64,000 nt of DNA, from positions 874,149 to 938,148 of the forward strand of contig JAEHCO010000001.1 of NCBI GenBank assembly GCA_020697715.1. The letters are read 5' to 3'. This stretch comes from Methanobacteriota archaeon (lineage in GTDB: Archaea > Thermoplasmatota > Thermoplasmata > SG8-5 > JAGLSY01). Position numbers and translations under genes: made by a program. The notes beneath the pieces were generated by a model that saw only the letters and a program-made list of their open reading frames with translations, made no database searches and was not told where the DNA came from. Of the stretch, positions 29,670 through 55,000 are shown piece after piece (the stretch's first letter is position 1; each line of letters opens with the position of its first letter).

Positions 29670-32600
29670 CTATGGTATTATCCAGGCATATGCTCCTGTG
29701 GAGTACACCCAGTATCCTTCACCGATCTGGAATTGATCGATGTCCGGCATGACCTCTGTGTTATAGGCTGCTGCTCCATTGAAGCGCTCCACTGCTGTGA
29801 CTGAGCCACCAGAATCTGTTTTCAGATCTCCGGCTGTGTATCCCTCGACCTGTGATGGGAAACCGACCATGTTCCAGCCAGCCACCAGGTTTATCGTAGT
29901 ACCTGATGGATTGACGCCAGTTACCTTGATAAAGCCATCTCCCACAGTGTCCACGAATATCCAGGCTCCCATTTCCTCATCCATGTAATTGTGGTTGATT
30001 CCAGGGAATGCCGAGATGTAGGTCTTCCAGTTGCTGCCGGGAGCTGCACTTCCATCATAGTGGTGGAAAGTGTTCCAGGTGGTGTCACCATCTGTATCCA
30101 TCAGTGCATTTGGCAGAGATGTATCTCCAGGTAGTAATGGAAGTGAAACGAAGTTCCAGCCCGCTACTACAGGTATCAGATATTCCGGTGCTGTCACGGT
30201 GACTGTAACCGTAGTTACAGGTCCCCAACCATTTGGTCCGTTCCCACGAACACTCAAGATATGATCGCCAGCACCCCATGAGGACGTGTCAATGACCACT
30301 GTGAAGTTATCGAGTGGTCCATCCCAGAACAGATCGAATGGTGATGCTATTGCATTAGCCAGTCCTATGCCAGGATCGACAGTGTCGAACCATTCCGCAC
30401 CATATAGGAATGGGAACACATTCTCGTCAACGGTCGTATTGTCCACGATATCCGCAGTTAGGGTGATAATGCCTGTTCCTATGGTTATGCTCAGTGGTGT
30501 TACACCATCAGCCAGCACATTGAAGGCTCCGGGTAGTGTATCGAACTTGGAAACAATTCCCGAGTCTATACTATCGTATGTGCCATCTGTGGCAACCACG
30601 TAGTACCAGCAGTTCTCTGGATCCAGTATCTCATTGGTATCCACATACTGTGATGTACCAGCTCCAACGTTTCCAACCAGGCTGTATGGCCCTTCATACC
30701 ACTCGCTATTTGCCTCATCGGCCTTGTAGATGTCATAACCAGTCACATCATATGCTCCAGCACCATCATCACTTGACAATGTCCATGTCAGTATCAGATC
30801 ATCCGGACTTGTCGTGACGATAGTTTCCACATACATCTCATCAATGCTGACCACATCTGCTGTAGTGGTGTCAGCTGGGTCGGTATCTCGGACTGCAACA
30901 TAGAATGCTCCATTGAATCCAGCACCCAGGTCATATGAGAATTGATCAAGACCTGGTGTTGAGTCTGTGGCCATTAGGGTCTCCTCACCTGCGAATGCTC
31001 CTGTCTGGGAGTAGTAATACTCGAAGGTATCATCGCCAGTGAATCCCGTGGTCGCGTAGAACATGTGTGTGCTGCCTGCAGGTACACCCTGGAACTGCCA
31101 CTGATGCTCTAATGAATAAGAGGATCCTGCAGCACCATAATCGTAGGTCACCCATACGTAGTCAAAGTATACTGCATCTGCTCCGCCTGGATCATTGTTG
31201 ATGTAATGGACATCCAATGCCGCTATCTCCGCAATGGTGTCAACGCCATCTGCAAAAATATTATAGCTGGCCACTCGGTTATTATCACCATCGGTAGGCA
31301 CAATACCTGTTCCCAACCAAGCACCTCCTTCGTTGATGGAGAATTCTACATCATTTGTGGCACCGTGGCCCGCCTGAGTAGAGAACTTCATCCAAAGGGT
31401 TGCTGCACTTACTGGATCGGGGTTTCCAGATGTGTCAAAATTATCGATCCACATAATACCATTCTTGCCAATTGTGTTGGTTGTTCCGTCATCTCCATTG
31501 ATCTGCGCGACAGTTGTTCCTGCTGTATCTCCAGCCTCTATAACACTTGGCAGTGCATTGGCTGTTCCTCCGCCTGCTGAAAATAACTCAGTGATATCCT
31601 CTGTTACAGCATCTGCTGGCATCTGTGTCGCAGCATATGTGTTAACGATACCATTGTTTTCCACAGCTATATCACTGCTAGCTTGCTGGTAAAATGTTGA
31701 TCCTGCACCTCCAGGCTGACTTAGAAGATCAGTTACTGGGCCAGGTGGCATCGAGTTCACAGTGTAGATATTGATCAATGTCTCATTGTTTATAGCCACT
31801 GCATCTCCTGGAAGCATGCTCATCACGGATATCTCGTACTCTGCCTCATCATCGAAGTCATACATCCAGTTCATCTGCTCGGTCTCGAGTTGAGCCAGCG
31901 TCAGAGTGGTGTCTTTAACATTAGTGTAGAGTGAACCCAGGCCTGCTGTCTTCTTCGATATCCTTATATCGTCAACATTCCAGCCAGTTCCACCACCTGC
32001 AAAGTCATCACAACCAGCCCAGTATCTTACCCAGACTGTATTGTCACCAAGCCATGGTGTCAGGTCCACAGAATCTTCTACGAATCCTCCGCTTGCTCCG
32101 GTGAATGCATCAGCACCTCCGTCTCCATCTATTGGATTCGCATATCCAGTTCCCAAAGCAGCATCATAGCCATTGGTCGATACGACCCTTGTCCATGCGG
32201 CTCCATCGGCACTGACATCCAGAACTCCGCCGTCCCAGCCAGCTTCCCAATCGTAGTTGTGGAACCATTTCCACTCTGCACTTGTGAAAGCTCCGGTCAG
32301 ATCAAAGGGTCCGAATTCCAGTTTGTAGTCATGAGGTCCAGCCCCATAATTACCATTGCCGAAGTCCCATGATGTTGCCGGGCTATTGGCTGCATTCTCT
32401 CTCAGATCCCAACCAGGTGCGGCTGGTCCATCAGGTGTCCAGCCTGGTAGTATTCCACTTTCACAATCATCATTGAGTAGGTATGTGGTAGAGCCGAGAT
32501 GATTGATCTCGATCTTTACTGGGAAAGGCCCTTGAGTTGTTGTTCCCGCATTCCCTATGGTTGCATCGATGGTTCTTGGTCCCCATTCATATGTGTTTCC

Positions 32601-34580
32601 ATCGACCATTGAAGTGATACCGAAGCATCCGACATCCATTGGTGGTGCGATGTATATGTCCAGAGGGGCGATATTGTTGTTCTCATTGGATTCAGATATC
32701 GCATCAAGGTGATCTGGTATTATACAGAGTGCGTAATATCCCTCGTATCCTGTAGTATCCCAGTTGTAGGTGACATCGGATGTGCCTCCAGATGGTATGG
32801 TCCCTGCATTCTCCGTGCCTATTAGGGCACCGCCACTGGATGGGTCTCCATCATATACGCCTACAATGACATCTGAACCGGTAGATGAACGTCCAGCATT
32901 GCTTACTGTTATGTGAACTGGGATGACATCTCCGCTATTTGGTGATGCAGAGTAGTTCAACCATGCATGAATGTATGATGGATTGTCCCACCATCCAGTT
33001 GGATAATTCGCAGGATTCAATGTAACTTCTCCTGTGCCATAATCTAGGAAATAATCATCCCATCCGCCAGTACCAACTTCGAACATCTGCCACCAATCCC
33101 ATGGGTCTGAACCGAACTCATTCTCATCTGCGAATATGGTGCAGTCAATTATATTGGAATATCCTAGGTTGAAAGATGTCTGGAACTCCACCATTGGGCC
33201 ATATACTGTTTCATTGACCACTGCTAATGTTGGTGAATCATAGTAGACATCTGATGCCTGGATGGCAACATCTGGAGTATTGTCTGCAAAGTCATAATAG
33301 ACCGCCTGATGAACTTCCATTGTCTCTTCATCGTATATCGCGGCTATGACACCCAGCTCATCCAGGTTCCATGCGGGCATTGCCCCTCCACCAAGGTTAG
33401 CAGCTCTTACTACTGGGTTCCTGGAAAAGAATACATCCTGATAGGTTATTGTTTCTCCCCTGTTAGTAAGTGTACCTTCAAGGGCCTCATCTGTACCCAC
33501 CCACTGTTGCATGGAATATCTTATATTGTAATCCTTGACAGTGTATCCGGGACCTGTTGGTCCTAATGCATTGTTCCTCTGTACAACAGTGTTATAATCA
33601 TCAACTATGAAGAAAGTGGTAACGAACTTGTCTGAATCATAACCAAGGTCTCCCATGTTCCCAATTGATGATATGGCCAATGAGAAAGTCCCCTCCTCAA
33701 GGACATCGTCATATGAACCGTTCAATGTCATTGTCAGGTCACTTGGTGTCGCGATCCTTGCATCCAAGTCTGTTTGAATGAACTCTGGAACTGCTCCTCC
33801 ATCTCCATCCCATCTTCCTGTTGATGTTGAATCACAATCTGAGTAATAAGCACCACTGCCGTCATACTTTCCTCCAGCTCCACCATCTATGGCGAAACCA
33901 CCGGCATTCATCAGATCATTTGCATCTCCTGCTGTATCTGAATTAAGGTAAGCGGGGAATGTGTCCAGTCCATAAGGAGCTGTATAGTACTCTCTCATAG
34001 CAGCATCATCTGCTGGATCTCCTCCGAGAAGCCAATTGAACTCTCCTGGAGCGAATTCCCAATCCTGCAATCCCCAATAAGATGCGCTGACGATGTTTCC
34101 ATCCATCCAGCTGTTCAATTCCATAAGAGCGACATCATTCCTTGAGTAGGCCGCAGCCTGGTTACCTGCATATAGATACGCTGGTACAAAGGAACCATTG
34201 TCAATTCCAGATGCTATCTCAAGCAGAACGGTCCTGCCTGTGTCCACATCTGGGAACAGGGAATTTATTTGAGGAGGTTCTTCAGCTGCCAATATGACAT
34301 TATCTCCCTCACTTGCTTTATAATCCGCTCTGTACTCGGTCAATTGTCTTATCCCGGGTGCAGAATCCAGAACAGTGCTTCCAGCCTTCATAGGTATTCT
34401 GTCAGCAACTATCTGCCGTGAAAGGTCAATGGATTCAGCACTTACCAATGAATCTGAATTCGTAATACCAGATCCAATAAGTCCTGTAAGTGATGCCATT
34501 AGCATCACGATGATCAATATGCTTGCCCCAATTTTCTTATTTGTATGCATGCCCATTATATCCATTCCTACTCCCTCCAA
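29670..34580 (-). CDS. Large secreted non-peptidase protein, 1636 aa (CARDB-like, jelly-roll and FN3-like domains plus the shared C-terminal domain)
   Basis: Signal peptide; CARDB-like ISESNENNN; jelly-roll WDGGVLDVS...GWNVDDI; no S8 motifs; ends GWNMVGFP...GYWVY...WIIP. Confidence 0.8.
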   Translation of the reverse strand: MEGVGMDIMGMHTNKKIGASILIIVMLMASLTGLIGSGITNSDSLVSAESIDLSRQIVADRIPMKAGSTVLDSAPGIRQLTEYRADYKASEGDNVILAAEEPPQINSLFPDVDTGRTVLLEIASGIDNGSFVPAYLYAGNQAAAYSRNDVALMELNSWMDGNIVSASYWGLQDWEFAPGEFNWLLGGDPADDAAMREYYTAPYGLDTFPAYLNSDTAGDANDLMNAGGFAIDGGAGGKYDGSGAYYSDCDSTSTGRWDGDGGAVPEFIQTDLDARIATPSDLTMTLNGSYDDVLEEGTFSLAISSIGNMGDLGYDSDKFVTTFFIVDDYNTVVQRNNALGPTGPGYTVKDYNIRYSMQQWVGTDEALEGTLTNRGETITYQDVFFSRNPVVRAANLGGGAMPAWNLDELGVIAAIYDEETMEVHQAVYYDFADNTPDVAIQASDVYYDSPTLAVVNETVYGPMVEFQTSFNLGYSNIIDCTIFADENEFGSDPWDWWQMFEVGTGGWDDYFLDYGTGEVTLNPANYPTGWWDNPSYIHAWLNYSASPNSGDVIPVHITVSNAGRSSTGSDVIVGVYDGDPSSGGALIGTENAGTIPSGGTSDVTYNWDTTGYEGYYALCIIPDHLDAISESNENNNIAPLDIYIAPPMDVGCFGITSMVDGNTYEWGPRTIDATIGNAGTTTQGPFPVKIEINHLGSTTYLLNDDCESGILPGWTPDGPAAPGWDLRENAANSPATSWDFGNGNYGAGPHDYKLEFGPFDLTGAFTSAEWKWFHNYDWEAGWDGGVLDVSADGAAWTRVVSTNGYDAALGTGYANPIDGDGGADAFTGASGGFVEDSVDLTPWLGDNTVWVRYWAGCDDFAGGGTGWNVDDIRISKKTAGLGSLYTNVKDTTLTLAQLETEQMNWMYDFDDEAEYEISVMSMLPGDAVAINNETLINIYTVNSMPPGPVTDLLSQPGGAGSTFYQQASSDIAVENNGIVNTYAATQMPADAVTEDITELFSAGGGTANALPSVIEAGDTAGTTVAQINGDDGTTNTIGKNGIMWIDNFDTSGNPDPVSAATLWMKFSTQAGHGATNDVEFSINEGGAWLGTGIVPTDGDNNRVASYNIFADGVDTIAEIAALDVHYINNDPGGADAVYFDYVWVTYDYGAAGSSYSLEHQWQFQGVPAGSTHMFYATTGFTGDDTFEYYYSQTGAFAGEETLMATDSTPGLDQFSYDLGAGFNGAFYVAVRDTDPADTTTADVVSIDEMYVETIVTTSPDDLILTWTLSSDDGAGAYDVTGYDIYKADEANSEWYEGPYSLVGNVGAGTSQYVDTNEILDPENCWYYVVATDGTYDSIDSGIVSKFDTLPGAFNVLADGVTPLSITIGTGIITLTADIVDNTTVDENVFPFLYGAEWFDTVDPGIGLANAIASPFDLFWDGPLDNFTVVIDTSSWGAGDHILSVRGNGPNGWGPVTTVTVTVTAPEYLIPVVAGWNFVSLPLLPGDTSLPNALMDTDGDTTWNTFHHYDGSAAPGSNWKTYISAFPGINHNYMDEEMGAWIFVDTVGDGFIKVTGVNPSGTTINLVAGWNMVGFPSQVEGYTAGDLKTDSGGSVTAVERFNGAAAYNTEVMPDIDQFQIGEGYWVYSTGAYAWIIP

Positions 34581-34943
34581 GATATCACGAATAAAGATGT
34601 GATATTGTTTTTATAAATCTCATATCTTGATTTCGAAGTTGAAAATATATATTGGAAGTAGGGCTATAAATAAGTATTCACTTAAAATATCATGGGTTTT
34701 TTATAATATATATATGTTTCTATATGATATATATATATCTTTGGGTTATCAATTGTTTGGTTGATTGAATTCAATATTATGAAAATTATATATATTGTTA
34801 ATCTATTATACTATATATATTTTCCTATGGGATGTATTTATATGTTTCGCTCCGGCATTTTAACAATAGTTACTCGTCAGTTTTAAGAAAGAATCAACCC
34901 TCTATGCTGTTTGTAAAGGCTTGATAAAATAAAAAGTAAAATG

Positions 34944-34967: not shown

Positions 34968-34985
34968 TTTTGCTTCTTTCTCTCA

Positions 34986-35402
34986 CTTACCAGTCCACAG
35001 TCCATATTGTTCCACTGCCGACCTTCACCCAGTACGCCTCACCACGCTGTAGGACATAGTTATTCGCCAGTGTGATGATATTGTATGGCCCAGCACCGTA
35101 GCCCTCAACAGAGGTTGCTCCAGTATCTGCTTTGAGATCGCCAACATCATATGATGAATCATCCTGGGCGGGATAACCAATTAGGTTCCAACCAGTGTTC
35201 AGAGTGATGTCTGTATTTGTTGGTTCTTGACCCTCTCCGACACTCAGGAGTGCTCCGGCTGTTGTGAGCTTCACCCACATGCCCTTCGCATTGTCCACGG
35301 ATGGCATATCCTGTGCTAATCCTGCAGCGAACTGTGCCTTGTCATAGGTCTTCCAATGGTCAGAAGCATCTGCTGGATCGTACCAGCAAACAACTTCCCA
35401 TG
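34986..35402. repeat. 417-bp exact direct repeat, copy 1 (matches 51655-52071)
   Basis: Base-by-base comparison by eye shows identity up to the first mismatch at 35403/52072; similarity continues to about 35530. Confidence 0.85.
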
Positions 35403-38400
35403 TGGTGTCACCATTACCCCAGTTCGCATCATCGAGAACTGTTAGCACATCTCCAGATGCTGTTATTGGGAATGAGACAAAGATCCAGTCTCCTGGCGCG
35501 GCTGTGCTGGTGTCGATGTCATATGGCACTGGTGCCACTCCTCCAGGTTCTGGCACTGCATTGGTGTTAGTATCCTCATTGCCAACATCATCCACTGCGC
35601 GTACGACATACCACCATGTGGTGACGTCGAACTCTCCCACGCCAGGATCCGTATATGTGTCGGTGCCTGCGGGTACACTGTCTATCAATGCTCCAGCATC
35701 CCATGGGCCGGCTGCATTATCAGCTCTGTAGATATTGTACTGAGCAACATCATCGGCTCCTGCACCATCATCTCCAGAAAGTGTCCAATTAAGGCAGTTA
35801 TCATTCGTGCCGCCGGAAACAAGAGCCTCCACACGTACATCATCGATATTCCATCCACAATATTGCCAGCTTCCATCACTGCCTCCTATTTCGAATCTTA
35901 TGTAGACAGTTGCTTGGTTATCAGCCCATCCGGATATATCATAGGTTTGTAGACCCCATGCGGAATCCGCTATAGTTGCTGTATTGGCCCATATCTCATT
36001 CCATGCCACTCCGTTTGTGCTGATCTCCAGATAAGCATGGTCATATAGTGGCTGTTCCACATTCAAATACCTCTGGAAGTAGAGAGTTGTGCCAGTTGCC
36101 AGGGAACAATCGATGGCTGGCGAGTATATGTAATTGGAATCTGTTCCCAGGTTTATTTCATAATCACCAGGATATGTACCAATTCCAGTAAGATCATTTC
36201 CTATGCTGAAGGTACCGCTGAACGCACCGTTCGGGTCTGCATTTCCATAATTACCACCTAGTCCGCTAGGTGTATCTATTTCCCAGTCATTACTTCCGCC
36301 GCCAGTTGTCCATCCCAGTTCGGCAAAGGTCGGTGAGCCATCGCCCTCGAAGTCTTCAAAGTAAACATCCTGGATAGCCTGTCCCCACCATTCCACTGTC
36401 AATCCAGTGACTGGCAAGACTCCACTATCTATCGTGGCAGTATCTGTAACGGTTGCCGGGCCACTACCATCATTCAAGTCATTGTAGGTCGCGGTAATTG
36501 TGTCACCATTTGATACATGAAGAATTCCTCCGCCATCTGTGGCTGAAAGAGTGATCGTGCTCTCGAAAATACTTGTATCTGGGCCAGTTTCCGTGAGTGT
36601 CACGGTCTCACCCAATGGTTCCGTATTGCTGTTTATGTTGATATTAACAGTCTCTGAAGACCCAGGGAGTGTGTTTAGATCGGTGTCGCCAACAGTTATC
36701 GTGGCCACATCTTCTCCAGCATAAACATTCTGATCCAGATCTATCGTTCCTTGCTGGGAAACATCCACTGCATTGTAAATGACCAGTGAATAATCCTGGT
36801 CGTCAGTACCATCAAAATCACAATCTCTTAGTATGTTAGTTCCAATGACCCGAACTGTATACTGGCCAACTTCAAGGCTTCCTGATGGAATATAAACACA
36901 TTCCACATTGTTCACATTATCATATCCGTCTCCTGTGGTATCCCAAATCGCTTGCGGGTCAGTATTTGCCGGTGTCCAGCCATTTAAGAATGCATTACCA
37001 TGGTATATGTCACCCAATGGGCTCTCTATTTCAAGGTTAACTTGATTCTGAAGCGTTGGGTTCGCACCACCCGTTGCATATAGGTCTGTGTATGCCAATG
37101 TGATCTTCAATGGCTCTGATGCATCGGCATATGAGAATGTGAATTCATCTGTCACGCCTGGTGTCAGTTCACCTACTTCGTCCTTTAGGATAAATGGTGC
37201 GGGAGGATCCATAATTGTTGGCAAGAACATCCTTCCCCATCCTTCATCTCTGTTTGGTATGTCCGCTGCGCCAATATCCACTGCTGTGTTTATTGTCAAT
37301 GCCTTGGCCATGGAAGGTGTTATGATCTGACCGTATGTGGCCAGATACCATTCGTATATCACTGCAACACCGCCGGCCACTGTTGGGTTGGCCTGGGATG
37401 TTCCAGAGCACCACTCGTATCTATTATCATCATCGTAAGTTCCATATAGACAGTCTATGGAAGCATCTGTGGAGCGGGGAGAAAGTGTTCCAGAACCTGC
37501 TGCAACAACATCTGGTTTTATCCTATTATCATCGGTCCAGCCCCTTGAGCTGAAATCAATGATCTGATCTGGATTGTCAGCATCAGTGTTCGGATCAACA
37601 TCGTTTCCATAGTTAGCCATGTCTGGCCAGTAATTCTCTGTCGCTCCCACCGTTATAACATTCTTCGCATTGCCAGGACTGCCTATGGTATTGGTCCCTG
37701 ACCCATCATTGCTCGCTGCAACGGTGATTATCAATTGTTGGTTTCCAGCTGCATTGTCATCCGCATCCCTGACCGCATGGTCATATGCTTCATCACGAGC
37801 GTCATATGCCCCATATGTTGAGCCGCCCCATGAATTAGAGTGTACCATCACACCAGCTCTTTGGGCATCTTCTAAAATTGTATAATAATCTGCTGGGCCT
37901 GCCCAACCGCCAGCATCAGTGAATATTTTCTGTGCATATATCTCGGCATCATATGCCAATCCCATTCCAGCGTAGTAGTCGCCGAATCCACTGTGAGTTA
38001 CACCAGTTCCTTCGAAACCATTGGCAACTATAAGACCTGCACAATGCGTCCCATGGCCATGTCCATCTGCCCAGTCGCCTGCTCCATATTCAGTTCCACC
38101 AATCACTCGATTTTCAAAATCAACATGGTTCGCATCCCCTGTGGTCCCGTCGCCTATGCCTGTATCTGCAATACCTACGATAACTCCATCGCCCGTCCAT
38201 CCAAGGTGATTGACATATGTTCCGAATCCACCTCCTGTGTCTCTGTATGGTGTGTCTGGGTCACTATCTGGATCATCAACCCAAAGGAAGCCACCAATCT
38301 GTTGCATGCCGGATTCATCTTTAAGTTCATTCTCGATGTATGGGGAAATGTAATGGACATCTTTAAAAGATGCCACTGTGTTCACGACACTGGCATCCTT

Positions 38401-38865
38401 CAATATTCCTCTTATGACATAGCCATTTGATGTTTCTCCTTCCTGGAAGACGTCGACATAATTCGCTATATCCTGCACGGTGTCCATCATACTGGCGGAA
38501 TACATCAGAGATATGGCAACACCATTTCCATTTGCAGCTATATCTGGAGATATCTTCGCCTCGTTCGGTAACTCGCTGACCGTCTTCACATATGGAAGAG
38601 CCTCGGTGATAGTCTTTTCCGATCCCGACATCTTCACTTCATATCCCTTTCCCTGAACATAGGTGATGATATCCACACCTATGGCATCCAGGGCATCGGA
38701 CCACCCCTCCTGAACTGGTCCAGTGAAATCAACGTAATATACGTCCTCCACATCGGCATATGCTTTCTGATCATTATCCGTGGCTAGACTTACTGGCATT
38801 ATCATGCTAACAGCTATGATGATCGATATTAAAACGCCCACGATATTCAATTTTTTAAATTCCAT
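34987..38865 (-). CDS. Secreted S8 subtilase, ~1290 aa
   Basis: Triad IADTG / HGHGTH / SGTSQA and oxyanion AASNDG. Start taken at MEFKKL (38865). Ends WTVDW. Confidence 0.9.
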   Translation of the reverse strand: MEFKKLNIVGVLISIIIAVSMIMPVSLATDNDQKAYADVEDVYYVDFTGPVQEGWSDALDAIGVDIITYVQGKGYEVKMSGSEKTITEALPYVKTVSELPNEAKISPDIAANGNGVAISLMYSASMMDTVQDIANYVDVFQEGETSNGYVIRGILKDASVVNTVASFKDVHYISPYIENELKDESGMQQIGGFLWVDDPDSDPDTPYRDTGGGFGTYVNHLGWTGDGVIVGIADTGIGDGTTGDANHVDFENRVIGGTEYGAGDWADGHGHGTHCAGLIVANGFEGTGVTHSGFGDYYAGMGLAYDAEIYAQKIFTDAGGWAGPADYYTILEDAQRAGVMVHSNSWGGSTYGAYDARDEAYDHAVRDADDNAAGNQQLIITVAASNDGSGTNTIGSPGNAKNVITVGATENYWPDMANYGNDVDPNTDADNPDQIIDFSSRGWTDDNRIKPDVVAAGSGTLSPRSTDASIDCLYGTYDDDNRYEWCSGTSQANPTVAGGVAVIYEWYLATYGQIITPSMAKALTINTAVDIGAADIPNRDEGWGRMFLPTIMDPPAPFILKDEVGELTPGVTDEFTFSYADASEPLKITLAYTDLYATGGANPTLQNQVNLEIESPLGDIYHGNAFLNGWTPANTDPQAIWDTTGDGYDNVNNVECVYIPSGSLEVGQYTVRVIGTNILRDCDFDGTDDQDYSLVIYNAVDVSQQGTIDLDQNVYAGEDVATITVGDTDLNTLPGSSETVNININSNTEPLGETVTLTETGPDTSIFESTITLSATDGGGILHVSNGDTITATYNDLNDGSGPATVTDTATIDSGVLPVTGLTVEWWGQAIQDVYFEDFEGDGSPTFAELGWTTGGGSNDWEIDTPSGLGGNYGNADPNGAFSGTFSIGNDLTGIGTYPGDYEINLGTDSNYIYSPAIDCSLATGTTLYFQRYLNVEQPLYDHAYLEISTNGVAWNEIWANTATIADSAWGLQTYDISGWADNQATVYIRFEIGGSDGSWQYCGWNIDDVRVEALVSGGTNDNCLNWTLSGDDGAGADDVAQYNIYRADNAAGPWDAGALIDSVPAGTDTYTDPGVGEFDVTTWWYVVRAVDDVGNEDTNTNAVPEPGGVAPVPYDIDTSTAAPGDWIFVSFPITASGDVLTVLDDANWGNGDTTWEVVCWYDPADASDHWKTYDKAQFAAGLAQDMPSVDNAKGMWVKLTTAGALLSVGEGQEPTNTDITLNTGWNLIGYPAQDDSSYDVGDLKADTGATSVEGYGAGPYNIITLANNYVLQRGEAYWVKVGSGTIWTVDW

Positions 38866-39078
38866 TTTACCTTCTCCTTCCCTACACATCGAGAACCCTT
38901 GCCAGGTTCTCGAAAATGTAAATTCGATTTCCTTTGTTCATTAAGTATTGGATAAAAAATAAATGTATAACATGCTATAAATAATTAGTTGTATAGTTTT
39001 TTCAACTAATTTTTTACTATTAATGTTTTTTGATAGAACCATATAAAATAGTTTTGTCTATTTTTATAAATTGAAAAT

Positions 39079-45246: not shown

Positions 45247-47058
45247 CTAAGGTATTATCCAGGTATAGACTCCAGTCGAGTACACCCAGTAAGCTTGTCC
45301 TATCTGGAATTCATCTACGTCGGGCATTATCTCCATATGGTATGCCGCAGCATCATTGAACCTCTCAACAGATGTCACCAAACCACCAGAATCCGCTTTC
45401 AGGTCGCCAGCAGTGTAACCTTCTGTCTGTGATGGGAAGCCCACCATATTCCATCCAGCCTGCAGCTGGATGCTGGTTCCTGATGGTTCAAATCCTTCTC
45501 CGACTGTCAGGAATGGATCATCAGCTCCACCACCCGCATTAATAATTCGTACCCATAGCCCCATCTTATTGTCCACGTTTGGCATATCCTGGGGTATGCC
45601 AGCAGTTGCTTGGGCTATGCTATAGGATTTCCAATGGTCGATCGGATCAGTTGGATCATACCAATGGATCATGTTCCATGTGGTTCCTCCATCACCCCAT
45701 GCTGCGTCATCTATGACCGTCAGTACATCCCCTGTGATATCTGTCGGGAATGAGACAAAGACCCATTGCTTGTCAGAAGCTCCTATCAGATCGATATCAT
45801 ATACATGTGCCGTAGCATATATGATGGTCACATCTGGTGTTCCAGGTGCTGCCTCGGTCTGTGGTGAATTATCTGATGCCATGGTGTATATATCATATGT
45901 TCCTGGGCCATCCGGGAAGTCAAAGCTCCAGGAACCACTGGCCACGGTTCCCGCTATCATAGCTGGATCATTTGCATCTTCCCATGATGCATAGCCACTG
46001 CCATCGAATTGATAGAATAATTCGATCTGTGTCAGATATATATCGTCTGTTGCTGACCAGTCGATCATAACTGTATTGGCGGATGTTGGGGATGCTCCAG
46101 TGTAGGATGCTGATGAAACAGGTGCTGAATCAGGTATATATATTGGCTCTGGCACAGAATTGGTGTTCGCATCTTCGTTTCCAATAATATCCTCCGCTCT
46201 TACCACGTACCACCACTGAATTCCGTCTGGAATTCCCATGAAAAAGTCTGTGTATGTATCTGTACCTGCTGGAACACTGTCTATCAGGGAACCAGCATCC
46301 CATGGGCCGTCGGGGTCAATAGATCTGTAAATATTGTATTGAAGTATATTATCTGCTCCAGCTCCATCGTCTCCGTCCAAGGTCCAATTAAGTGTATTAT
46401 GGTCGGTTGGGACATTGGGGTTTCCACCAAGTATGTACATATGATCTATGAGTATACTGTCAGCCCAGGTCTTATCGGTCCCATCTACTACTGTATCAAT
46501 GAAGGTTACATCGACGATATCCCCTGGCGCGACTCCTGTAAGCAATGCCGATGTGTAGGCATCTGTGTCCGATGGCATGGTCACAGAACCTGCACTTTCT
46601 ATCGCTCCTCCATTAACTGAATATGATATCGCCATCTCTTCAGATGATGTGTAGGCATCCAGGTATAAAGTGTATGGTCCAGTTCCTGAAGGGTCGATGT
46701 TTATTGTATATGTGATATTAAGTCGGTATTTCCGGCCTCCACCGCCAGTACGCACTTCATCTGTCCTGTCATGTGTATCATCCTGCGTATTGGTGTTTGT
46801 GTGATTGGTAGAAGATTCGCCTGTTGTTATTAATTTTGAAACAGTTATGTCTTCTGTATTTGTCACCACACCCCACCACTCGACCGTCAGGTCACTGGCC
46901 AATATCATGTCTCCATCTATGGAACTGATATTGGTGATCGGCCCGCCTACATGATATTCTACTAGGCTCATCGAGTTTGCTGACACCAGCAAACTAATTG
47001 ATATTACAAATACGAATGTCAAGCCCACAAATTTATTGCCCATTTTCCAACTCCTCAT
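45247..47058 (-). CDS. Secreted non-catalytic array member, 603 aa (FN3-like with insert, Ig-like module, shared C-terminal domain)
   Basis: Signal peptide resembles that of 51656-55288; no S8 domain; C-terminal half closely resembles 47282-51415. Confidence 0.8.
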   Translation of the reverse strand: MRSWKMGNKFVGLTFVFVISISLLVSANSMSLVEYHVGGPITNISSIDGDMILASDLTVEWWGVVTNTEDITVSKLITTGESSTNHTNTNTQDDTHDRTDEVRTGGGGRKYRLNITYTINIDPSGTGPYTLYLDAYTSSEEMAISYSVNGGAIESAGSVTMPSDTDAYTSALLTGVAPGDIVDVTFIDTVVDGTDKTWADSILIDHMYILGGNPNVPTDHNTLNWTLDGDDGAGADNILQYNIYRSIDPDGPWDAGSLIDSVPAGTDTYTDFFMGIPDGIQWWYVVRAEDIIGNEDANTNSVPEPIYIPDSAPVSSASYTGASPTSANTVMIDWSATDDIYLTQIELFYQFDGSGYASWEDANDPAMIAGTVASGSWSFDFPDGPGTYDIYTMASDNSPQTEAAPGTPDVTIIYATAHVYDIDLIGASDKQWVFVSFPTDITGDVLTVIDDAAWGDGGTTWNMIHWYDPTDPIDHWKSYSIAQATAGIPQDMPNVDNKMGLWVRIINAGGGADDPFLTVGEGFEPSGTSIQLQAGWNMVGFPSQTEGYTAGDLKADSGGLVTSVERFNDAAAYHMEIMPDVDEFQIGQAYWVYSTGVYTWIIP

Positions 47059-47281: not shown

Positions 47282-50200
47282 CTAAGGTATGTTCCATGCA
47301 TAAGCTCCAGTCGAGTACACCCAGTAGGCCTGTCCTATCTGGAATGCATCCCCATTGGGCATGGTCTCGATATTGTAAGCCGCGGCATCATTGAACCTCT
47401 CTATCGAGGTCACCATTCCTCCAGTTGCGGCTATCAGATCGCCCGCGGTGTACCCCTCGGTCTGTGATGGGAAGCCCACCATGTTCCAGCCAGCCACCAG
47501 GTTTATTGTGGTTCCAGATGGATCAAATCCTTCTCCAACTGTCAGGAACACATCATCTGGTGGTCCGCCTGCATTTACCAGGTGCACCCACAATCCCATT
47601 GTGTTGTCTAGATTTGGCAGGTCTTGTGTGAGACCAGCCGCTGCCTGTGCCTTGTCATATGCTTTCCAGTGGTCCGTAGGGTCTGTTGGGTCATACCACA
47701 TTGTGGCATCCCATGTTGTTCCGCCGTCACCCCATGCTGCGTCATCGATCAAGGTCAGGACATCCCCTGTTACATCTATTGGGAATGATATGAAGACCCA
47801 TGAATTATCGCTAGCTCCGGTCAGATCGATGTCGTAGACCTGGATCGGTATGTATAAGATAGTCACATCTGGAGTTCCAGGTGCGCCCTCGGTCTGTGGG
47901 AGATCATCGGTCGCCCTGGTGTAGAAGTCATATGTTCCAGCACCATCCGGGAAGTCAAAGCTCCAGGAGCCCGAGTCTGCGGTTCCTGACGCAGTTGCTG
48001 GGTTAGTGCCATCGGCCCATGAGGAATAGCCACCACTGTCGAACTGGTAATATAGTTCGACCTGTGTGAGATCAATGTCATCGGTCGCGGCCCAGTTGAT
48101 CGTAACTGGATTATTGGGTGTTGGTGATGCTCCAGCATAGGATGCTGATGAAACAGGTGCAGAATCAGGTACTGAGCCGGGTTCTGGCACTGCATTTGTG
48201 TTTGTATCTTCATTGCCAGCTCCGTCCTCTCCTCTCACGATGTACCACCACTGTGTTCCATCTGACATTCCACGGTCAATGTCTATGTAGGTGTCTGTAC
48301 CGGCTGGCACAGTGTCTATGACTGACCATGGTCCACCAGAATTATCAGCTCTATAGATATTGTAACCTACAACATCATCAGCTCCTGCGCCATCATCACC
48401 AGACAATGTCCAGTTCACTGCATTGTGATCTGTTGATGTTGACATGGCTGACCATGTGAAGCCCTCTATCCTGGTATTAGCTGTAGTAGAGCCCCAGGAC
48501 ACCCTATCCGCATTGTTCCTCTCAGATAGGTAAGAATAGAAGGTCCAAGTGGCTGCATCCAATTGTGTCGCGCCCAGTACCTCGGTTGTGAAGGTCTCCA
48601 CCAGAGTGGTGGGTGGACTGGATCCACCACAATACCATTCCACCACTATGGAATCTGTGTCTGATACTGTGGTCTGCGGACAATCCCATGTCGCGCTCAC
48701 TGTTGCAGTCGTGGATGTACTGGCTATGGCAACAGGACTACCGCCTGTTATCTCCGTCATTGCGCCTCCACTGGCCCGGGAGTATATCCTAATTCCTGAA
48801 TAGATCGTACTGGTGCTTGATAATGTCACTGTTTGAGTGGTCGCACTCTGTGATGTTCCCAGGGAATCACACGTCAATCCATTCACAGTTGCCGAGTCCG
48901 ATCTCATGAACCGAGTCTCGGTAGATCCCGCTGATGGTGCCCACCATTCGACAGTAAGTCCGCTGGTGGGAGCCACGCCCGCATCCACAGTTGCTGTATC
49001 GGTCACGGTCGCGGGTCCACTCCCATCAAATGCATCATTGTAGGTCGCGGTTATCAGGTCTCCATGTGATACCTGAAGGATACCGCCTCCATCTGTTTGG
49101 GAAAGTGTTAGTGTTCCAACAAAGACACTGGTATCTCCACCAGTCTCTGTCAAGGTCACACTCTCTCCGCCTGGCTCTGAGGTAGATGTCACGGTTATCG
49201 TGGTCGTCTGGACATTCGTATTTGTGTTGAGGTCCGTGTCGCCAACAGTTATTGTGGCTGTATCCTCTCCAGCATATACATTCTGATCCAGATCGACGGT
49301 TCCCTTCTCGGACACATCTTCGCAGTTGTACATGACCAGTGAGTAATCCTGGTCATTGGATCCGTCATTGTCACAGTCTGCTATTATGTTCGTTCCTATG
49401 ATACGGACTGTGTACTGGCCAACTTCGAGTTGGCCCGGTGAGAAGTAAACACACTCGACATTGTTCCTGTCATCGTATCCATCTTGATTGGTGTCGAAGG
49501 TGGTGCTTGGGTTGCCAGTGGTGGAATATCCACCACTGAAGGCATTACCGTGGTATATTGTTCCCAATGGGCTCTCAACTTCCAGATTCACCTGGTTCTG
49601 AAGGGTTATAGTTGCACCGCTCTCAGCGTAGGCGTCTGTGTATACCAGTGTGATCTTTACAGGCTCTGATGGGTCAACATATGAGAATGTGTAGCTATCT
49701 ATGTCAATGGGATTATCGGGTATCAGCTCACCTGGATCCTGAAATATCATGAATGGTGCTGCCTGGTCAATTATTGGCATTATGTTCATTCTTCCCCAGC
49801 CTTCATTCTGGTTTGGTATATCCGCTGTGCCGAAATCCTCTGCTGTGTTGATCATAAGTGCCTTCACGGTTGCTGGTGTGGGTGCCATTCCATATGTGTA
49901 ATCATACCATTCATAGACCACTGCACCGCCGCCTGCTGCTCCTGGGCAGGACTGGCTTGTTCCCGTGCACCAGGTATATCGGTCATCTGGTGTATAATCA
50001 CCAAACAGTCCCTCATTGACCAGGGGGCTGCTGAGCGATAAAGTGTTCTGTCCAGGTGTTAGGATATCTGGCTTGATCCTGCCATCATCTGTCCATCCTC
50101 TTGAACTGCTGGCATACATGAGATCTGGACTAGTTGCATCAATGGAGTATGTATTACCATAAGAGTCCGCATCCGGCGCATAGTTCTGTACTCCACCCAC

Positions 50201-51415
50201 TGTTATTATGTTCTTGGCATTTCCTGGGCTTCCAATAGTGTTAGTTCCTGAGCCTGAATTTCCAGCTGAAGTGAATACGACCATCTGTTGGTTACCGGCT
50301 GTGCCTGGGTCAGCATCCCTCACTGCCTGGTCAAAGGCTGTATCCGCGGCCCCATAAGCACCGCCTGATGTGGATCCCCATGAATTGGTATGGATCTGTG
50401 CTCCGCCGGTCCATCCCTGATAAATGATATCTTTGTAATCTGCAGGACCACACCAGGATGCTGAGGATCCCTCGAAGATCTGCTCTACATATATATCTGA
50501 TTGTGAAGCAAGACCCTGACCCACATAGTAGGCTCCGAATCCAGCATATGTGACACCATTGCCGTTATAGGTATCACCAGCTGCCAGGCCTATGCAGTGT
50601 GTTCCGTGACCGTGTTCGTCCTGCCAGCCACCGGTTCCGAAATCATGACCTCCGATAACACGGCCAGTTAGATCATTATGGCCGCCATTTGGGGTAGATC
50701 CGTCGCCAAGACCAGTATCTGCGATAGCGATCGTCACACCTGCACCGTACCAGCCCAGCTGGTTGACATGAGAGCCGTAATCATCTAGGGCTCTGTAAGG
50801 CGTGTTCATGTTCGCATCATCATCGTATACCCAGGCTCCGCCGCCGCCGATTTGGACAGCGATCTCGCTGTGAAGTTCCTCGGGGTAATATGGCTCAATG
50901 AAATGAACATCCATGAATGAAGCGATAGAGTTCAGATCATTCATATTGTTCATCCTGGCCTTCAGGATGTAACCCATATCTGTGTAATCCTCATCAATGA
51001 CACTAACTAGTCCGGCCAATGAGTCCAGTGTGTCCTCCATGGTGTCAGAATTGGTAAGTGTGATTATCACGTCATTCCCATTGGCTGCGATATCTGGAGA
51101 TATTTTGAGTTCCAATGGATATTCCTGTGCATATTCCACAAAGCTCAGATCCTCGATGGTCTGTAATTCTTTATAGGATAACTTTGCTTCATATCCCTGA
51201 CCTGGAAGATAGGTTATTATCTCTATCCCTGCCTGATCCAGTGCATTCTGCCATTCAATAAGAACTGGCTCTTCCATATTGATAATGAAATTCCTCTTTC
51301 CCTGAAATGCCTCTGTATCCATATCCAATGTTGCCGCTCCAGCTGGTAATAGCATAAAAGCCGCTACACATATCGATAATAACACGCCCACATAATTGTT
51401 ACTAATTTTATTCAT
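47282..51415 (-). CDS. Secreted S8 subtilase, ~1377 aa
   Basis: Triad IADTG / HGHGTH / TGTSQS and oxyanion SAGNSG. Start taken at MNKISNN (51415) after GGAGAGG. Ends WNIP. Confidence 0.9.
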   Translation of the reverse strand: MNKISNNYVGVLLSICVAAFMLLPAGAATLDMDTEAFQGKRNFIINMEEPVLIEWQNALDQAGIEIITYLPGQGYEAKLSYKELQTIEDLSFVEYAQEYPLELKISPDIAANGNDVIITLTNSDTMEDTLDSLAGLVSVIDEDYTDMGYILKARMNNMNDLNSIASFMDVHFIEPYYPEELHSEIAVQIGGGGAWVYDDDANMNTPYRALDDYGSHVNQLGWYGAGVTIAIADTGLGDGSTPNGGHNDLTGRVIGGHDFGTGGWQDEHGHGTHCIGLAAGDTYNGNGVTYAGFGAYYVGQGLASQSDIYVEQIFEGSSASWCGPADYKDIIYQGWTGGAQIHTNSWGSTSGGAYGAADTAFDQAVRDADPGTAGNQQMVVFTSAGNSGSGTNTIGSPGNAKNIITVGGVQNYAPDADSYGNTYSIDATSPDLMYASSSRGWTDDGRIKPDILTPGQNTLSLSSPLVNEGLFGDYTPDDRYTWCTGTSQSCPGAAGGGAVVYEWYDYTYGMAPTPATVKALMINTAEDFGTADIPNQNEGWGRMNIMPIIDQAAPFMIFQDPGELIPDNPIDIDSYTFSYVDPSEPVKITLVYTDAYAESGATITLQNQVNLEVESPLGTIYHGNAFSGGYSTTGNPSTTFDTNQDGYDDRNNVECVYFSPGQLEVGQYTVRIIGTNIIADCDNDGSNDQDYSLVMYNCEDVSEKGTVDLDQNVYAGEDTATITVGDTDLNTNTNVQTTTITVTSTSEPGGESVTLTETGGDTSVFVGTLTLSQTDGGGILQVSHGDLITATYNDAFDGSGPATVTDTATVDAGVAPTSGLTVEWWAPSAGSTETRFMRSDSATVNGLTCDSLGTSQSATTQTVTLSSTSTIYSGIRIYSRASGGAMTEITGGSPVAIASTSTTATVSATWDCPQTTVSDTDSIVVEWYCGGSSPPTTLVETFTTEVLGATQLDAATWTFYSYLSERNNADRVSWGSTTANTRIEGFTWSAMSTSTDHNAVNWTLSGDDGAGADDVVGYNIYRADNSGGPWSVIDTVPAGTDTYIDIDRGMSDGTQWWYIVRGEDGAGNEDTNTNAVPEPGSVPDSAPVSSASYAGASPTPNNPVTINWAATDDIDLTQVELYYQFDSGGYSSWADGTNPATASGTADSGSWSFDFPDGAGTYDFYTRATDDLPQTEGAPGTPDVTILYIPIQVYDIDLTGASDNSWVFISFPIDVTGDVLTLIDDAAWGDGGTTWDATMWYDPTDPTDHWKAYDKAQAAAGLTQDLPNLDNTMGLWVHLVNAGGPPDDVFLTVGEGFDPSGTTINLVAGWNMVGFPSQTEGYTAGDLIAATGGMVTSIERFNDAAAYNIETMPNGDAFQIGQAYWVYSTGAYAWNIP

Positions 51416-51613
51416 CTTCAAACCTCTCCATTTAACGAATAAAGTGAATGTTGCCCACATCACTCCAACGATCTTAGTACATTTCCTATATTTTCAGAAA
51501 TCCACATCGATTTATTTATAGTTAAGCTTTTTGGTATATAGTATATATAGATATGTAATTTGTATGATAAATAAGATATATTATCAGACGAATAATGTCA
51601 AAAATGTAAAAAT

Positions 51614-51637
51614 TGAGAGGGTTGTTAAGCCCTCTCA
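51614..51637 (-). terminator. Conserved array terminator hairpin
   Basis: tgagagggtt-gtta-agccctctca. Confidence 0.7.
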
Positions 51638-51654
51638 TTTTGCTTTGTCAGTCG

Positions 51655-52071
51655 CTTACCAGTCCACAGTCCATATTGTTCCACTGCCGACCTTCACCCA
51701 GTACGCCTCACCACGCTGTAGGACATAGTTATTCGCCAGTGTGATGATATTGTATGGCCCAGCACCGTAGCCCTCAACAGAGGTTGCTCCAGTATCTGCT
51801 TTGAGATCGCCAACATCATATGATGAATCATCCTGGGCGGGATAACCAATTAGGTTCCAACCAGTGTTCAGAGTGATGTCTGTATTTGTTGGTTCTTGAC
51901 CCTCTCCGACACTCAGGAGTGCTCCGGCTGTTGTGAGCTTCACCCACATGCCCTTCGCATTGTCCACGGATGGCATATCCTGTGCTAATCCTGCAGCGAA
52001 CTGTGCCTTGTCATAGGTCTTCCAATGGTCAGAAGCATCTGCTGGATCGTACCAGCAAACAACTTCCCATG
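51655..52071. repeat. 417-bp exact direct repeat, copy 2
   Basis: Identical to 34986-35402 (offset 16669). Confidence 0.85.
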
Positions 52072-55000
52072 AGGTGTCACCATTACCCCAGTTCGCATCA
52101 TCGAGAACTGTTAGGACATCTCCAGATGCTGTTATCGGGAATGAGACAAAGACCCAATCCCCTGGCGCGGCTGTGCTGGTGTCGATGCCATATGGCACTG
52201 CTGGAGTTCCACCAGGCTCCTGCACAGCATTGGTGTTGGTATCTTCATTGCCAAGGACATCCTCGCCCCTGACCACGTACCACCACAATGTTCCATCTGG
52301 TAGTCCTTTGTCCAGATCTGTGTATATGCCTGTGCCTGCTGGTACACTGGCTATGTAAGCTCCTGCATCCCATGGGCCAGCTGCATTATCAGCTCTATAA
52401 ATGTTGTATTGAACCAGATCATCTGCTCCTGCTCCATCATCGCCGGATAAGGTCCAGTTGACAGTATTGTGATCATCTGGATTGGTTATCAGGGACCAGC
52501 TAAAGCCATCTATTCTGGTGTCGCGGGCTGTCGTGCCCCATTCTATCGTACTACCACCCTGGCCTGTTCCTGCCACTACCAGGTAGTAATTGCAGGTCCA
52601 TTCACTCGCATCAAGCTGGCTGGCTCCAAGTACATTTGTTGTGAATGTCGCCCTTTCCGCGGTAGGTGGTGAGCTTGTGGATGCGTATAATCTAACGACT
52701 ATCGAGTCGCCCAGGTCCAACTGAGTTGCTGGTGGTGTCCAGGTAGCGGTGTTTATTCCTTCCGATGAAACTGTTCTTCCAGCAATACCAACTGCAGTTC
52801 CGGATGTGATCTCAGTCTCTACACCTCCACTGTCCCTCTGCCAGACCCTTATGCCTGCATAGACTGGAGCACGGTTACCCAGATTACCTCCGCTCTGCAT
52901 TGTTGCTGACTGGGTGGTACCAAGTAAATTGGCTGCCAATCCATTGACATTGACTTCACTGGATACACCTCTCATGTATCTTGTCTCTATGGTCGAGTCA
53001 CCAGGACCCCAGTACTCCACTGTTAGGTCGCTGGTCGATGCAACTCCTGCATCGACTATCGCGGTGTCTGTTACAGTAGCTGGTCCTGATCCGTCATCCG
53101 CGTCATCGTATGTCGCGGTAATGACATCATTGTGAGATACCTGGAGTATTCCTGCTCCATTGGTAGCTGATATCGTGATGGTTCCCTGGAATGTGCTGGT
53201 GTCATCTCCAGTTTCTGTGAGTGTAACAGTTTCAACACCAGTTTCTGTGTCACTGTCGATGTCCACGACAACGGTCTGAGGTGAGTTGGTGTTCGTATTG
53301 AGATCCCAGTCCATTACCTGGATCATCACTGTGTCCTCGCCAGCATATAATTCTTCATCTAGCTGAATAGAACCTTGAGAGGTGATTGGTATCATTCCAC
53401 CAGATACGACAAGAGAGAAGTCCTGGGGGCCCTGGGCTACGTCCCCAGTTCGTCCATATACTTCCACTGTCCAGATACCGCTCTGTGGGTTCTGAACGAA
53501 GACATTTTCCAGATTGTTGAGGTCATCTCTGTGATCCGAGCCCCACTGGTTCGCTCCTGTTCCAGAAGCTGAGTAAAGGCTTGTCCACAAGCCATTGTTA
53601 CCATAATATTCCACTCCACCTGGTGATATGACCTTCAGGTCTAGGTTATTGATCAATGCTCTTGCCGCATTGGTGGTTCCAAGTGCGGCAGGGTCTGTCC
53701 AGGCAAGTGAGATCTTCAATGGGTAAGTACCATCGACATAGGTCTGGCGTGAGTACATATTGCCTGAGTCCAGTGCCTGTGGGTATTCATCAATTTGATG
53801 ATACTGAGCTCCCAGATTATACATGTATTCCATGTCTGGTGTTCCCCAGCCCTGCTCATTTCTTGTTGCATCTCCCAGATCATACTGGTATGCATCTGCC
53901 ACCAAGAGGGCCTTGATAGTGCTTGAATAAGGAAGTTCTCCCAATGGGTTTGTATCGAAGTAATTCTCCTGCCACATATCATAGGCGATAACAGCTGAAC
54001 CAGCTACGATGGGCGTCGCGCCACTTGTTCCACCAAAGTCATCATAATAATCACCACTAGCATAGCCGCCAACTCTGTTGTCCACCGTGTATATCCAGTC
54101 AAATGGCGCGCACATCTCCGGCTTCTGTCTGCCATCTGCGGCTGGTCCTCTTGAAGGTGTATTTCCCTGTGATTGCAAAAGCCACTCATCATCCGCCATG
54201 TTCGCGGTGTTCTTGTGGAATATGGCTCCTATTGCCATGACGTTCTTTGCACAGGCATCTTCGCTGAGATCTCCCTCGGCGGTTCCATCATTACCATTGC
54301 CGTTTGCCCAGAGAGATAGGACCTTTGGATAATCCACTGCTGCCTGATCATCAGCTGCAGCATTTATCTGATATAGTCCATCCTGTGTTCCGGAGCTCCA
54401 TGAATTTGATTGGACGATGCCGTTCATCCCGGCACTTCCTTCATTGAAATTTCCATTCCAGAGATTTTCAATGGAAGTGTATCTTCCAGTTCCCCAGTCG
54501 GAGAAAACACCCACTGCTTCATAAGCAATTCCAAGTGCGTCGATGTCACCAGCTCCATTTCCGAAGACGATACCTGATGTGCAGGTGCCGTGATCATCAT
54601 TTGATACTGATCCATCTGTGTATATGACATTAGCGAGATCCGGATGGCCAATGTCTATTCCATTGTCCTGAACTTCGGCCAGCATACCAGCGCCAGTGAA
54701 TCCCACTGCTTCGGTGGTATCATGACCCATGAATGTATTGGATGTGATAAGATTCATATATGCTTCTGGCTCCGCATCATGGCCGACAGATCTGACCTCT
54801 TGGATCTCAGCGATGGAATTGATCTTGGATGCGTCTATCGTGCATCTTAGGTATGTGAAACCTGTATTGACCTTGATATCACTGGCTCCCAGTTCCTCCA
54901 GGGATGCCATTGTTCTGAGTATTCCAGCATCTTCATGCAGGACCACTATGACATCGGTCATGCCGGACTTTCCATCCAGGTCTGGATTGATCTTCATTGA

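Follow-up and report, generated by a model that had tools for sequence, protein, structure and literature searches.

The genome segment analysed here, a 64,000-nucleotide (nt) stretch of a Methanobacteriota archaeon (assembly GCA_020697715.1, contig JAEHCO010000001.1, positions 874,149 to 938,148; hereafter the window), encodes six proteins, A to F, each of which most probably contains a fibronectin type III (FN3) domain split by an exchangeable passenger domain. The polypeptide chain would form FN3 strand A (P-x-T-G-L-T-V-E-W-W-G), exit the sandwich in the A-B loop, build one complete, independently folding beta domain (two in protein A) and return for FN3 strands B-G (..DHNTVNWTLSGDDGAGADD..YNIYR..WWYVVRA). 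The FN3 would belong to a stalk that connects an enzyme, the head, to a conserved carboxyl-terminal tail domain; the head of B and E is an S8 subtilase, and those of relatives include also a clostripain C11 or a phosphoesterase. In this stalk the FN3 would act as a pedestal holding the passenger out sideways. Since the two ends of the passenger meet at one point, an unrelated domain could take its place and leave the remaining protein as it is, and such replacement would have been repeated in the evolution of this archaeal order. The split FN3 is called the socket below.

All six proteins feature a P-x-(T/S)-(G/D)-L-T-V-E-(W/Y) strand followed by an insert of 151-297 amino acids (aa) and then by the B-to-G remainder of the FN3, which has the signature ..D(H/D)N..NWTLSGDDGAGADD..YNIYR..GPW..VPAGT..Y.D..WWY.VRA. 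The post-insert block of ~90 aa (..DHNTVNWTLSGDDGAGADD..YNIYR..GPW..VPAGT..Y.D..WWYVVRA..NED) is 38-72% identical among the six, and the alignment of the six blocks was used as a search profile, A1. A first-pass annotation of the window had described a first FN3 strand separated from the remainder by ~150-300 aa in six paralogues; this arrangement was seen in all of them, at coordinates within ~10 nt of those it gave and with inserts of the length it stated (Table 1). The signature motifs that it listed are shared by the six, but strand A of protein A is degenerate (PVTDLLSQPGG) and C is devoid of the DDGAG loop. A degenerate strand A is also present in the orthologue of A from the same genus (g2_4, PATDVATEVGG).

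The spacing between strand and FN3 is not a product of chance. A strict search for the strand motif gave 93 matches in 73 proteins that bear 107 socket-type FN3 domains, and 87 of these matches sit 140-215 aa upstream of a socket FN3. The remaining matches are one at 8 aa (protein P0048), two at 234 and 379 aa, corresponding to longer inserts, two at the cut ends of partial proteins and one elsewhere. In the control, 307,238 residues from 185 proteins that lack such a domain, the motif matched 18 times. An order-wide sample of 41 socket domains from 14 other genomes, which overlaps in part with the set of 73 proteins (some contigs are shared), has the motif 157-200 aa upstream in 35 cases and at 234 aa in one; the nearest strict match is that of the previous socket in 2/41, and none is found by the search pattern in 3/41. 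The motif is unchanged across insert classes.

The 1870-aa relative P0048 has an empty socket. Its strand motif is contiguous with strand B (..PVTDLTVRYWPAVDNYLFWTLSVDDGAG..), with nothing inserted in the surrounding sequence (..TDTAIVDSNAVPVTDLTVRYWPAVDNYLFWTLSVDDGAGDNDIVQYNIYR..). It is the sole empty socket found among the 107 domains of the 73 proteins and the 41 domains of the 14 other genomes of the order. P0048 carries also a second socket-type FN3 (residues ~1313-1690), preceded by DUF2341 and Laminin_G_3, for which the search pattern found no strand-A motif within 550 aa upstream. This second FN3 may have a very large or differently built insert.

Socket-type FN3 domains (E-value 1e-25 or better) were detected at 10 places in this genome, and the architecture is present on a 956-kb contig of it. 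Four of these places are sockets outside the six-protein set, and the observation is wider than the six paralogues. Among the genomes searched, the domain was found in 19/22 of the order, this one counted, with 1-12 matches each, and in 0/300 other genomes sampled evenly from the phylum.

Clustering of the inserts by BLAST (E 1e-10 and 50% cover) distributed 88 sockets into 15 classes with 23, 19, 7, 6, 6, 6, 5, 4, 4 and 3 members and five singletons. It took in sockets whose strand A matched cleanly and whose insert did not exceed 230 aa; the 19 of 107 sockets omitted from the clustering and from the tree presented below, having no clean strand-A match or an insert >230 aa, include those of D and A. 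Single-linkage clustering at E 1e-4 was dropped, as it merged most jelly-roll inserts into one class. Of the three classes of insert distinguished earlier in the window, the jelly-roll (class 1, in B) and the 'VNGL' domain (class 2, in C, E and F) were recovered, but the third, which grouped A and D, needs correction. The insert of A is made of two domains; the first, residues 1014-1144 of protein A, is 37% identical to the insert of an 837-aa protein of this genome (BLAST, E 9e-24). The insert of D has no BLAST match to that of A at E 1e-3 and is related to its second half at profile level only (hhalign probability 77%, E 2e-5, 102 columns). The socket of the same-genus A orthologue holds ~450 aa, arranged in three domains. 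Protein A has in addition a second MAM-like domain that is not in a socket (residues ~697-880, window ~32000-32500, ...GWNVDDIRIS) and shares 37% identity with the passenger in the socket of the B orthologue from the same genus.

Judging from their homologues, the inserts are autonomous domains that occur also outside sockets. The complete module of B has full-length homologues (93-100% cover) in proteins from metagenome-assembled genomes named Thermoplasmata or Thermoplasmatota by their sources, with heads that include S8, clostripain (PF03415) and others. Its MAM-like part alone (52-60% query cover) is found in many bacterial proteins, where it has an ordinary tandem arrangement in contrast to the FN3-nested domain of B. 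The B insert scores below the cut-off of the Pfam family InhA-like_MAM (PF20773; E 7e-4, 19.6 bits, cut-off 26.9), the related k9-class insert of P0047 passes it (30.3 bits vs 26.9), and precomputed Pfam labels on the B-module homologues include PF20773 and PF00629. LTD passes the Pfam cut-off inside the socket of P0213 (46.1 bits vs 34.3), a protein with a phosphoesterase head. A search for the class-2 domain returned 20 proteins, E itself included, and in at least seven the domain is outside a socket: it is carboxyl-terminal in P0265 and P0268, follows directly the signal peptide in P0270 and precedes other domains in P0258, P0266, P0267 and P0272. None of these free domains is preceded by the LTVE motif. 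P0271 and P0269 end at or inside the class-2 domain and are hence uninformative on socket context. The k4-class domain, a socket passenger elsewhere, stands in an ordinary tandem context in protein H of the window, which gave no match to profile A1.

The passengers are putative binding modules, as suggested by the MAM/CBM-like, LTD and LamG-type folds or families found among them. The fold of the class-2 insert gave no Foldseek match in the PDB at E 1e-3 and only low-scoring FN3 or tail-protein hits in BFVD (template modelling score ~0.2). This insert has no Pfam family, and the structural matches listed for its model (see below) are all FN3 domains. A weak lead comes from an Atlas feature search, in which the insert scored 0.92-0.94 against clusters without names, most of them viral, at a recognition lower than usual.

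Replacement of the passenger is seen between close relatives. Proteins P0004, P0037, P0057, P0033 and P0015 resemble one another closely in the upstream domains (78-92% identity) and in the FN3 (77-88%), but their inserts belong to four unrelated classes (18-27% apparent identity). Over most of 1500 aa, 30-column windows of P0033 and P0037 show 77-100% identity. Their identity is 90% just before the socket, up to ..PASPTGLTVEH(W/Y)GT, falls to 20-30% across P0033 residues 1052-1215 and is regained at 73-90% from SGGGG(T/L)DDNAVNWT. By this alignment, the passenger was replaced, with both ends of the exchanged tract at the socket junctions. The sister FN3s of P0004 (P0004_1405) and of the 837-aa protein of this genome (90% identical; 96% support in the Shimodaira-Hasegawa-like approximate likelihood ratio test) also hold inserts of different classes.

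The same-genus genome G002 has a syntenic cluster (C11:275194-299725) with four socket genes instead of six. Its E orthologue kept the insert (83%). The B orthologue is 90.5% identical in the head and 90% in the tail and carries a jelly-roll of a different class, with no BLAST match to the B insert. The F orthologue, 87% identical in the head, has a D-like insert, not a class-2 one. The cluster comprises an H-like gene, orthologues of F, E, B and A and a counterpart of the 596-aa neighbour described below, with no counterpart of C, D and G; from this comparison the copy number of the gene cluster varies within the genus. The interchangeability of passengers at one site, as proposed in the first-pass annotation, is thus borne out by the empty socket of P0048, by at least 15 insert classes, by the P0033/P0037 swap and by the swapped inserts of the B and F orthologues.

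The swaps may arise by recombination at or near the conserved junctions. The socket might be, as a tentative proposal, a dedicated cassette-exchange site in which autonomous binding domains move in, out (leaving an empty socket) and between copies through such recombination. A quieter history, which is unlikely but deserves serious weight, is that the socket is real and not the site of active exchange. Each class would have entered once long ago and spread by duplication and vertical descent, with occasional replacement between paralogues of a whole unit made of upstream domain, socket and insert, the flanks being conserved as a folding constraint only. Several observations count against the exchange of inserts and fit this quieter history. 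When insert class is mapped on the FN3 tree (88 rows, 93 columns, many forks unresolved), 32 changes are required. They exceed the minimum of 14 but are fewer than the shuffled mean of 58, and none of 200 shuffles gave a number as low. Such clustering indicates that much insert diversity was inherited with its FN3, and the starred branches of the tree force extra changes for two classes only. In the B and F pairs with their orthologues (g2_3 and g2_1, respectively) the identity is lower in the beta-sandwich 'up' domain (50-77%) and the FN3 (63-80%) than in head and tail, and replacement of the whole module fits this pattern as well as exchange of the insert alone. It was also proposed that the conserved flanks let recombination swap the domains. 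The swaps are supported by comparison of relatives, but the flanks of the window are conserved as protein only. Their synonymous sites diverged, and no DNA sign of flank-mediated recombination was found in the window, the longest exact word shared between paralogues being no longer than 18 nt.

There is one trace of recent recombination in the window. The last ~510 nt of B (34990-35500) and F (51660-52170), paralogues 17 kb apart, are 98-100% identical, compared with 72% for their FN3 parts, which points to recent gene conversion of the carboxyl-terminal tail domain. The near-identity sets in just after the FN3 and continues to the stop codon. From these sequences the paralogues do recombine, but the B/F event bypassed the socket. 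The absence of active exchange is in turn hard to reconcile with P0033 and P0037, which are 90% identical up to the junctions on both sides of an unrelated insert, with the five proteins of near-identical flanks that hold four insert classes, and with the two sister FN3s that differ in class. Taken together, the sequences suggest that inserts mostly, not always, travel with their FN3.

The assignment of the socket to FN3 was addressed with sequence profiles and structure prediction. Profile A1 gave weak matches to FN3 domains among PDB sequences, starting at FN3 strand B (2yux, E 0.014; 3mpc, E 0.045). Its search of 1.8 billion representative proteins retrieved 3823 proteins at E 1e-3 or better, many of which are ordinary tandem FN3 arrays with a period of ~100-105 aa. 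In uninterrupted relatives with the DDGxG..Y.IYR signature (P0163, P0167, P0171 and P0151), an aP.PT.L.A strand precedes strand B by 10-12 residues, so that a strand A like the pre-insert motif is normal for this family. The invariant residues of A1 (W11, Y27/I29/Y30 and W65/Y67/V69) correspond to the core signature of FN3 and are presumably located in strands B (Trp), C (Tyr) and F (Tyr corner). In sequence terms the socket FN3 is a divergent FN3 subfamily.

AlphaFold2 models were built for residues 712-1131 of B (preceding domain, strand, MAM-like insert and FN3; alignment of 17 rows, B plus 16 homologous modules) and for residues 821-1112 of E, whose 'VNGL' insert is unrelated to that of B (14 rows, E plus 13 homologues). 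They were aligned with VIA to 48,161 solved chains and the 50 matches listed for each were inspected. In the B model (m776def7ca15e; predicted local distance difference test, pLDDT, 73; strand E117-123, LTVEWWG), 24 of the 50 listed matches are jelly-roll chains (reelin repeats, MAM, carbohydrate-binding modules (CBMs) and InhA2; Z 11-14.3) confined to residues 125-316. Another 19 are single FN3 domains that extend from model residues 103-114 to 404-415. They align only 84-113 residues over this span and therefore skip the insert; examples are 7jgu_A (88/90 residues, root-mean-square deviation (rmsd) 2.1, Z 11.1), 8c7m_B (94 residues, rmsd 2.1) and 3mpc_B (95/96). The other listed matches are five two-FN3 chains that cover also the preceding domain and two that cover insert and FN3. 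In the E model (m50571493d37f; pLDDT 82.4, mostly >90 in the insert; strand E13-20, SGLTVEWW) all 50 listed matches are FN3 domains, from residues 1-11 to 274-285 with 83-110 aligned residues, such as 1k85 (88/88 residues, rmsd 2.1) and 5x83_C (95/95). Over both models the FN3 matches have Z 10-12.8 and rmsd 2.0-5.6, mostly 2.0-3.3, for 83-113 aligned residues. By full-length superposition, the predicted structures conform to the FN3 fold, a sandwich of seven strands (A, B, E and C, C', F, G). As whole FN3 chains align sequentially from before the insert, the pre-insert strand takes the place of strand A in both models. The closure of a split FN3 around its insert, anticipated in the first-pass annotation, is thus reproduced in the two models, and in neither does the LTVE strand belong to the insert or to the preceding domain. 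The models support its assignment as FN3 strand A.

It is very improbable that the modules are ordinary tandem domains. The LTVE segment would then be a conserved linker or the first strand of the insert, and the FN3-like part would be six-stranded or borrow the last insert strand (IDDVRVE, IDHMYIL or IEGFTWS) as strand A. Such pairing is possible in principle, this last strand being only ~6-10 residues before strand B. A number of points weaken the split-FN3 assignment. Pfam fn3 (PF00041) has no match on the socket of any of the six proteins at E 0.01, nor on the contiguous version of P0048 at E 1, and the FN3 matches of the profile in the PDB are weak, as given above. Strand pairing was deduced from alignment ranges and aligned lengths, and the strand itself is modelled with only moderate confidence (block pLDDT 79 and 68 in the B model, 77 and 68 in the E model). 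The alignments of 17 and 14 rows are shallow and AlphaFold2 may favour closing a familiar fold; the models cover insert classes 1 and 2 only. Ordinary tandem domains are contradicted by the alignment of full-length FN3 chains from before the insert in both models, by the jelly-roll matches starting after the LTVE strand, at model residues 125-130, and by a motif that is invariant over 15 unrelated insert classes, is contiguous with strand B in P0048 and does not precede class-2 domains outside sockets. The split FN3 that closes around its passenger remains a feature of predicted models.

Least credible of all is that the models close the FN3 artefactually and that the swaps are chimeras produced in metagenome assembly, an idea fed by the shallow alignments, by the metagenomic origin of most relatives and by conserved flanks that recur several times per genome and could mislead assemblers, but opposed by an architecture present in 19/22 genomes of the order and on the 956-kb contig, by different inserts in the syntenic clusters of two same-genus genomes, by the agreement of two models that were built separately for paralogues whose inserts are unrelated, and by flanks that, being conserved as protein and not as DNA, are poor substrates for mis-assembly.

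An FN3 broken in one loop by a long insertion is also known in the insulin and IGF-1 receptors, whose FnIII-2 domain is interrupted by ~120 aa. In the receptors the insert is in the C-C' loop, is largely disordered with a furin site, and is not known to fold autonomously or to be exchanged. The archaeal site differs in being the A-B loop and in receiving folded domains of many families. The B insert itself resembles MAM domains (Z 13.3 to Spodoptera SR-C MAM, 8yt7, and 11.9 to neuropilin-1 MAM, 5l73), InhA2 (4yu5, Z 12.1) and reelin repeats and CBMs (Z 12-14), all on model residues 125-316, and shares with MAM-type domains the carboxyl-terminal GWNIDDV strand.

The closest parallel comes from bacterial RTX adhesins and their 'split Ig-like domain' (PMC10865825, PMC12077191), which has one amino-terminal beta-strand of ~12 residues, a whole ligand-binding domain and then the rest of the sandwich. 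According to the consulted passages of these papers, such domains host different passengers (CBM, PA14, peptide-binding and RTX roll), are argued to project the binding site away from the fibre axis and are missed by homology tools because they are discontinuous. The archaeal sockets have the same one-strand start, inserted domain and sandwich completion, with the passenger termini side by side. The discontinuity of the sandwich by which PMC10865825, in its consulted part, defines a split domain is found in them, as indicated by the models, the P0048 control and the motif spacing. They differ from the adhesins as presented there in their host, an FN3 of one sequence family (DDGAG..YNIYR..WWYVVRA) and not a BIg-like extender, and in their carriers, which are head-less proteins and secreted enzymes of the S8, C11 or phosphoesterase type and not RTX fibres of the type I secretion system. 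The carrier organisms are archaea of one order, and at least 15 insert classes are found in this single socket family. The empty socket and the junction-precise swaps between orthologues are documented for the archaeal socket, and no such swaps are described for RTX split domains in the consulted text of PMC10865825 and PMC12077191. The Pfam scan of the window proteins revealed neither RTX nor BIg extender arrays. The archaeal socket works like the split domains of RTX adhesins and is not a member of that family. A literature search covering main texts returned no description of this archaeal split-FN3 architecture.

The six socket-bearing open reading frames (ORFs; window 29670-55288, all on the minus strand) are part of a minus-strand run of eight genes, 24655-59741, which encode large proteins of 603-1993 aa with amino-terminal hydrophobic signal-like segments (Table 1). 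According to Pfam, the heads of B, E, G and H are S8 subtilases and A contains CARDB; a scan of the up domain, the tail and the extra domain gave nothing meaningful. The conserved carboxyl-terminal domain (~150-175 aa, no Pfam match) is common to A-G and internal in H, where ~250 further residues follow it. It has the pattern W.F.SFP...GD..T.L.D...G.G.T.W....WYDP.D..DHWK.Y... and two types of ending, ...TWTVDW in B, C and F and ...YAWIIP in A, D, E and G. It may be an anchoring or sorting domain. A 596-aa ORF (window 22830-24620) adjoins the cluster, and its same-genus counterpart of 605 aa is likewise cluster-adjacent.

Table 1. Coordinates in the window of the socket proteins, of the parts of each split FN3 and of a related free-standing domain.
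Feature	Position	Strand	Remarks
Protein A	29670..34580	-	1636 aa, secreted multidomain: CARDB, non-socket MAM-like domain, socket with two tandem passengers, ...YAWIIP-type tail
A FN3 strands B-G	30543..30815	-	124 bits to profile A1
A insert	30816..31706	-	297 aa; 'FDY.W' (k5-like) domain plus 'SLEH.W..IDEMY' domain
A FN3 strand A	31707..31736	-	degenerate (PVTDLLSQPGG)
Protein B	34987..38889	-	1300 aa: S8 subtilase head, beta-sandwich 'up' domain, socket, ...TWTVDW-type tail
B FN3 strands B-G	35545..35817	-	
B insert	35818..36381	-	188 aa; MAM/CBM-like jelly-roll (FEDFEG...GWNIDDV)
B FN3 strand A	36382..36411	-	VTGLTVEWWG; strand E117-123 in the AlphaFold2 model of B
Protein C	39119..45100	-	1993 aa, socket with class-2 insert
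C FN3 strands B-G	39650..39922	-	without DDGAG loop
C insert	39923..40438	-	172 aa; class 2 ('VNGL...GIRVW...LGATQLDA..WT'), 71% identical to F insert
C FN3 strand A	40439..40468	-	VTGLTVEYDG
Protein D	45247..47058	-	603 aa, without enzyme head: signal peptide, socket, another beta domain and tail
D FN3 strands B-G	46144..46416	-	154 bits to profile A1
D insert	46417..46869	-	151 aa; ends ILIDHMYIL; 45% to P0168 insert, 43% to same-genus F-orthologue insert
D FN3 strand A	46870..46899	-	ASDLTVEWWG
Protein E	47282..51463	-	1393 aa: S8 head homologous to that of B, socket with class-2 insert, extra beta domain, tail
E FN3 strands B-G	48170..48442	-	
E insert	48443..48937	-	165 aa; class 2, all-beta; pLDDT mostly >90
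E FN3 strand A	48938..48967	-	TSGLTVEWWA; strand E13-20 in the AlphaFold2 model of E
Protein F	51656..55288	-	1210 aa, socket with class-2 insert; tail apparently converted recently from or to B
F FN3 strands B-G	52214..52486	-	152 bits to profile A1
F insert	52487..53005	-	173 aa; class 2
F FN3 strand A	53006..53035	-	TSDLTVEYWG
Protein H residues 771-937	56931..57431	-	free-standing k4-class passenger domain ('WG.YQTT...VDYLEA'); 40% to P0004 insert, E 1e-30

With the split FN3, the projection of a binding domain by a split domain, a principle known from bacterial RTX adhesins, would be seen also in archaea, in secreted enzymes and with an FN3 as the host. The system is a natural experiment: one host domain is found without a passenger, with single passengers of at least 15 unrelated kinds and with two or three in tandem, and the breakpoints of at least one swap are no more than a few residues away from the conserved junctions. 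It is relevant to the ways in which multidomain surface proteins vary their specificity while their architecture stays undisturbed, to annotation, discontinuous domains being invisible to Pfam-type scans, and to engineering, the FN3 A-B loop appearing permissive for whole-domain insertion. If the socket is a dedicated cassette-exchange site, the secreted proteases and surface proteins of each genome would draw on a stock of targeting modules that is combinatorial and turns over fast, an analogue at the protein level of the specificity switching known from shufflons or tail fibres. The socket would then also offer a natural template for domain-insertion engineering in FN3 scaffolds. The passengers may direct the secreted enzymes or the cell surface to different substrates, which suggests that the extracellular proteases of these uncultured archaea carry exchangeable targeting modules.

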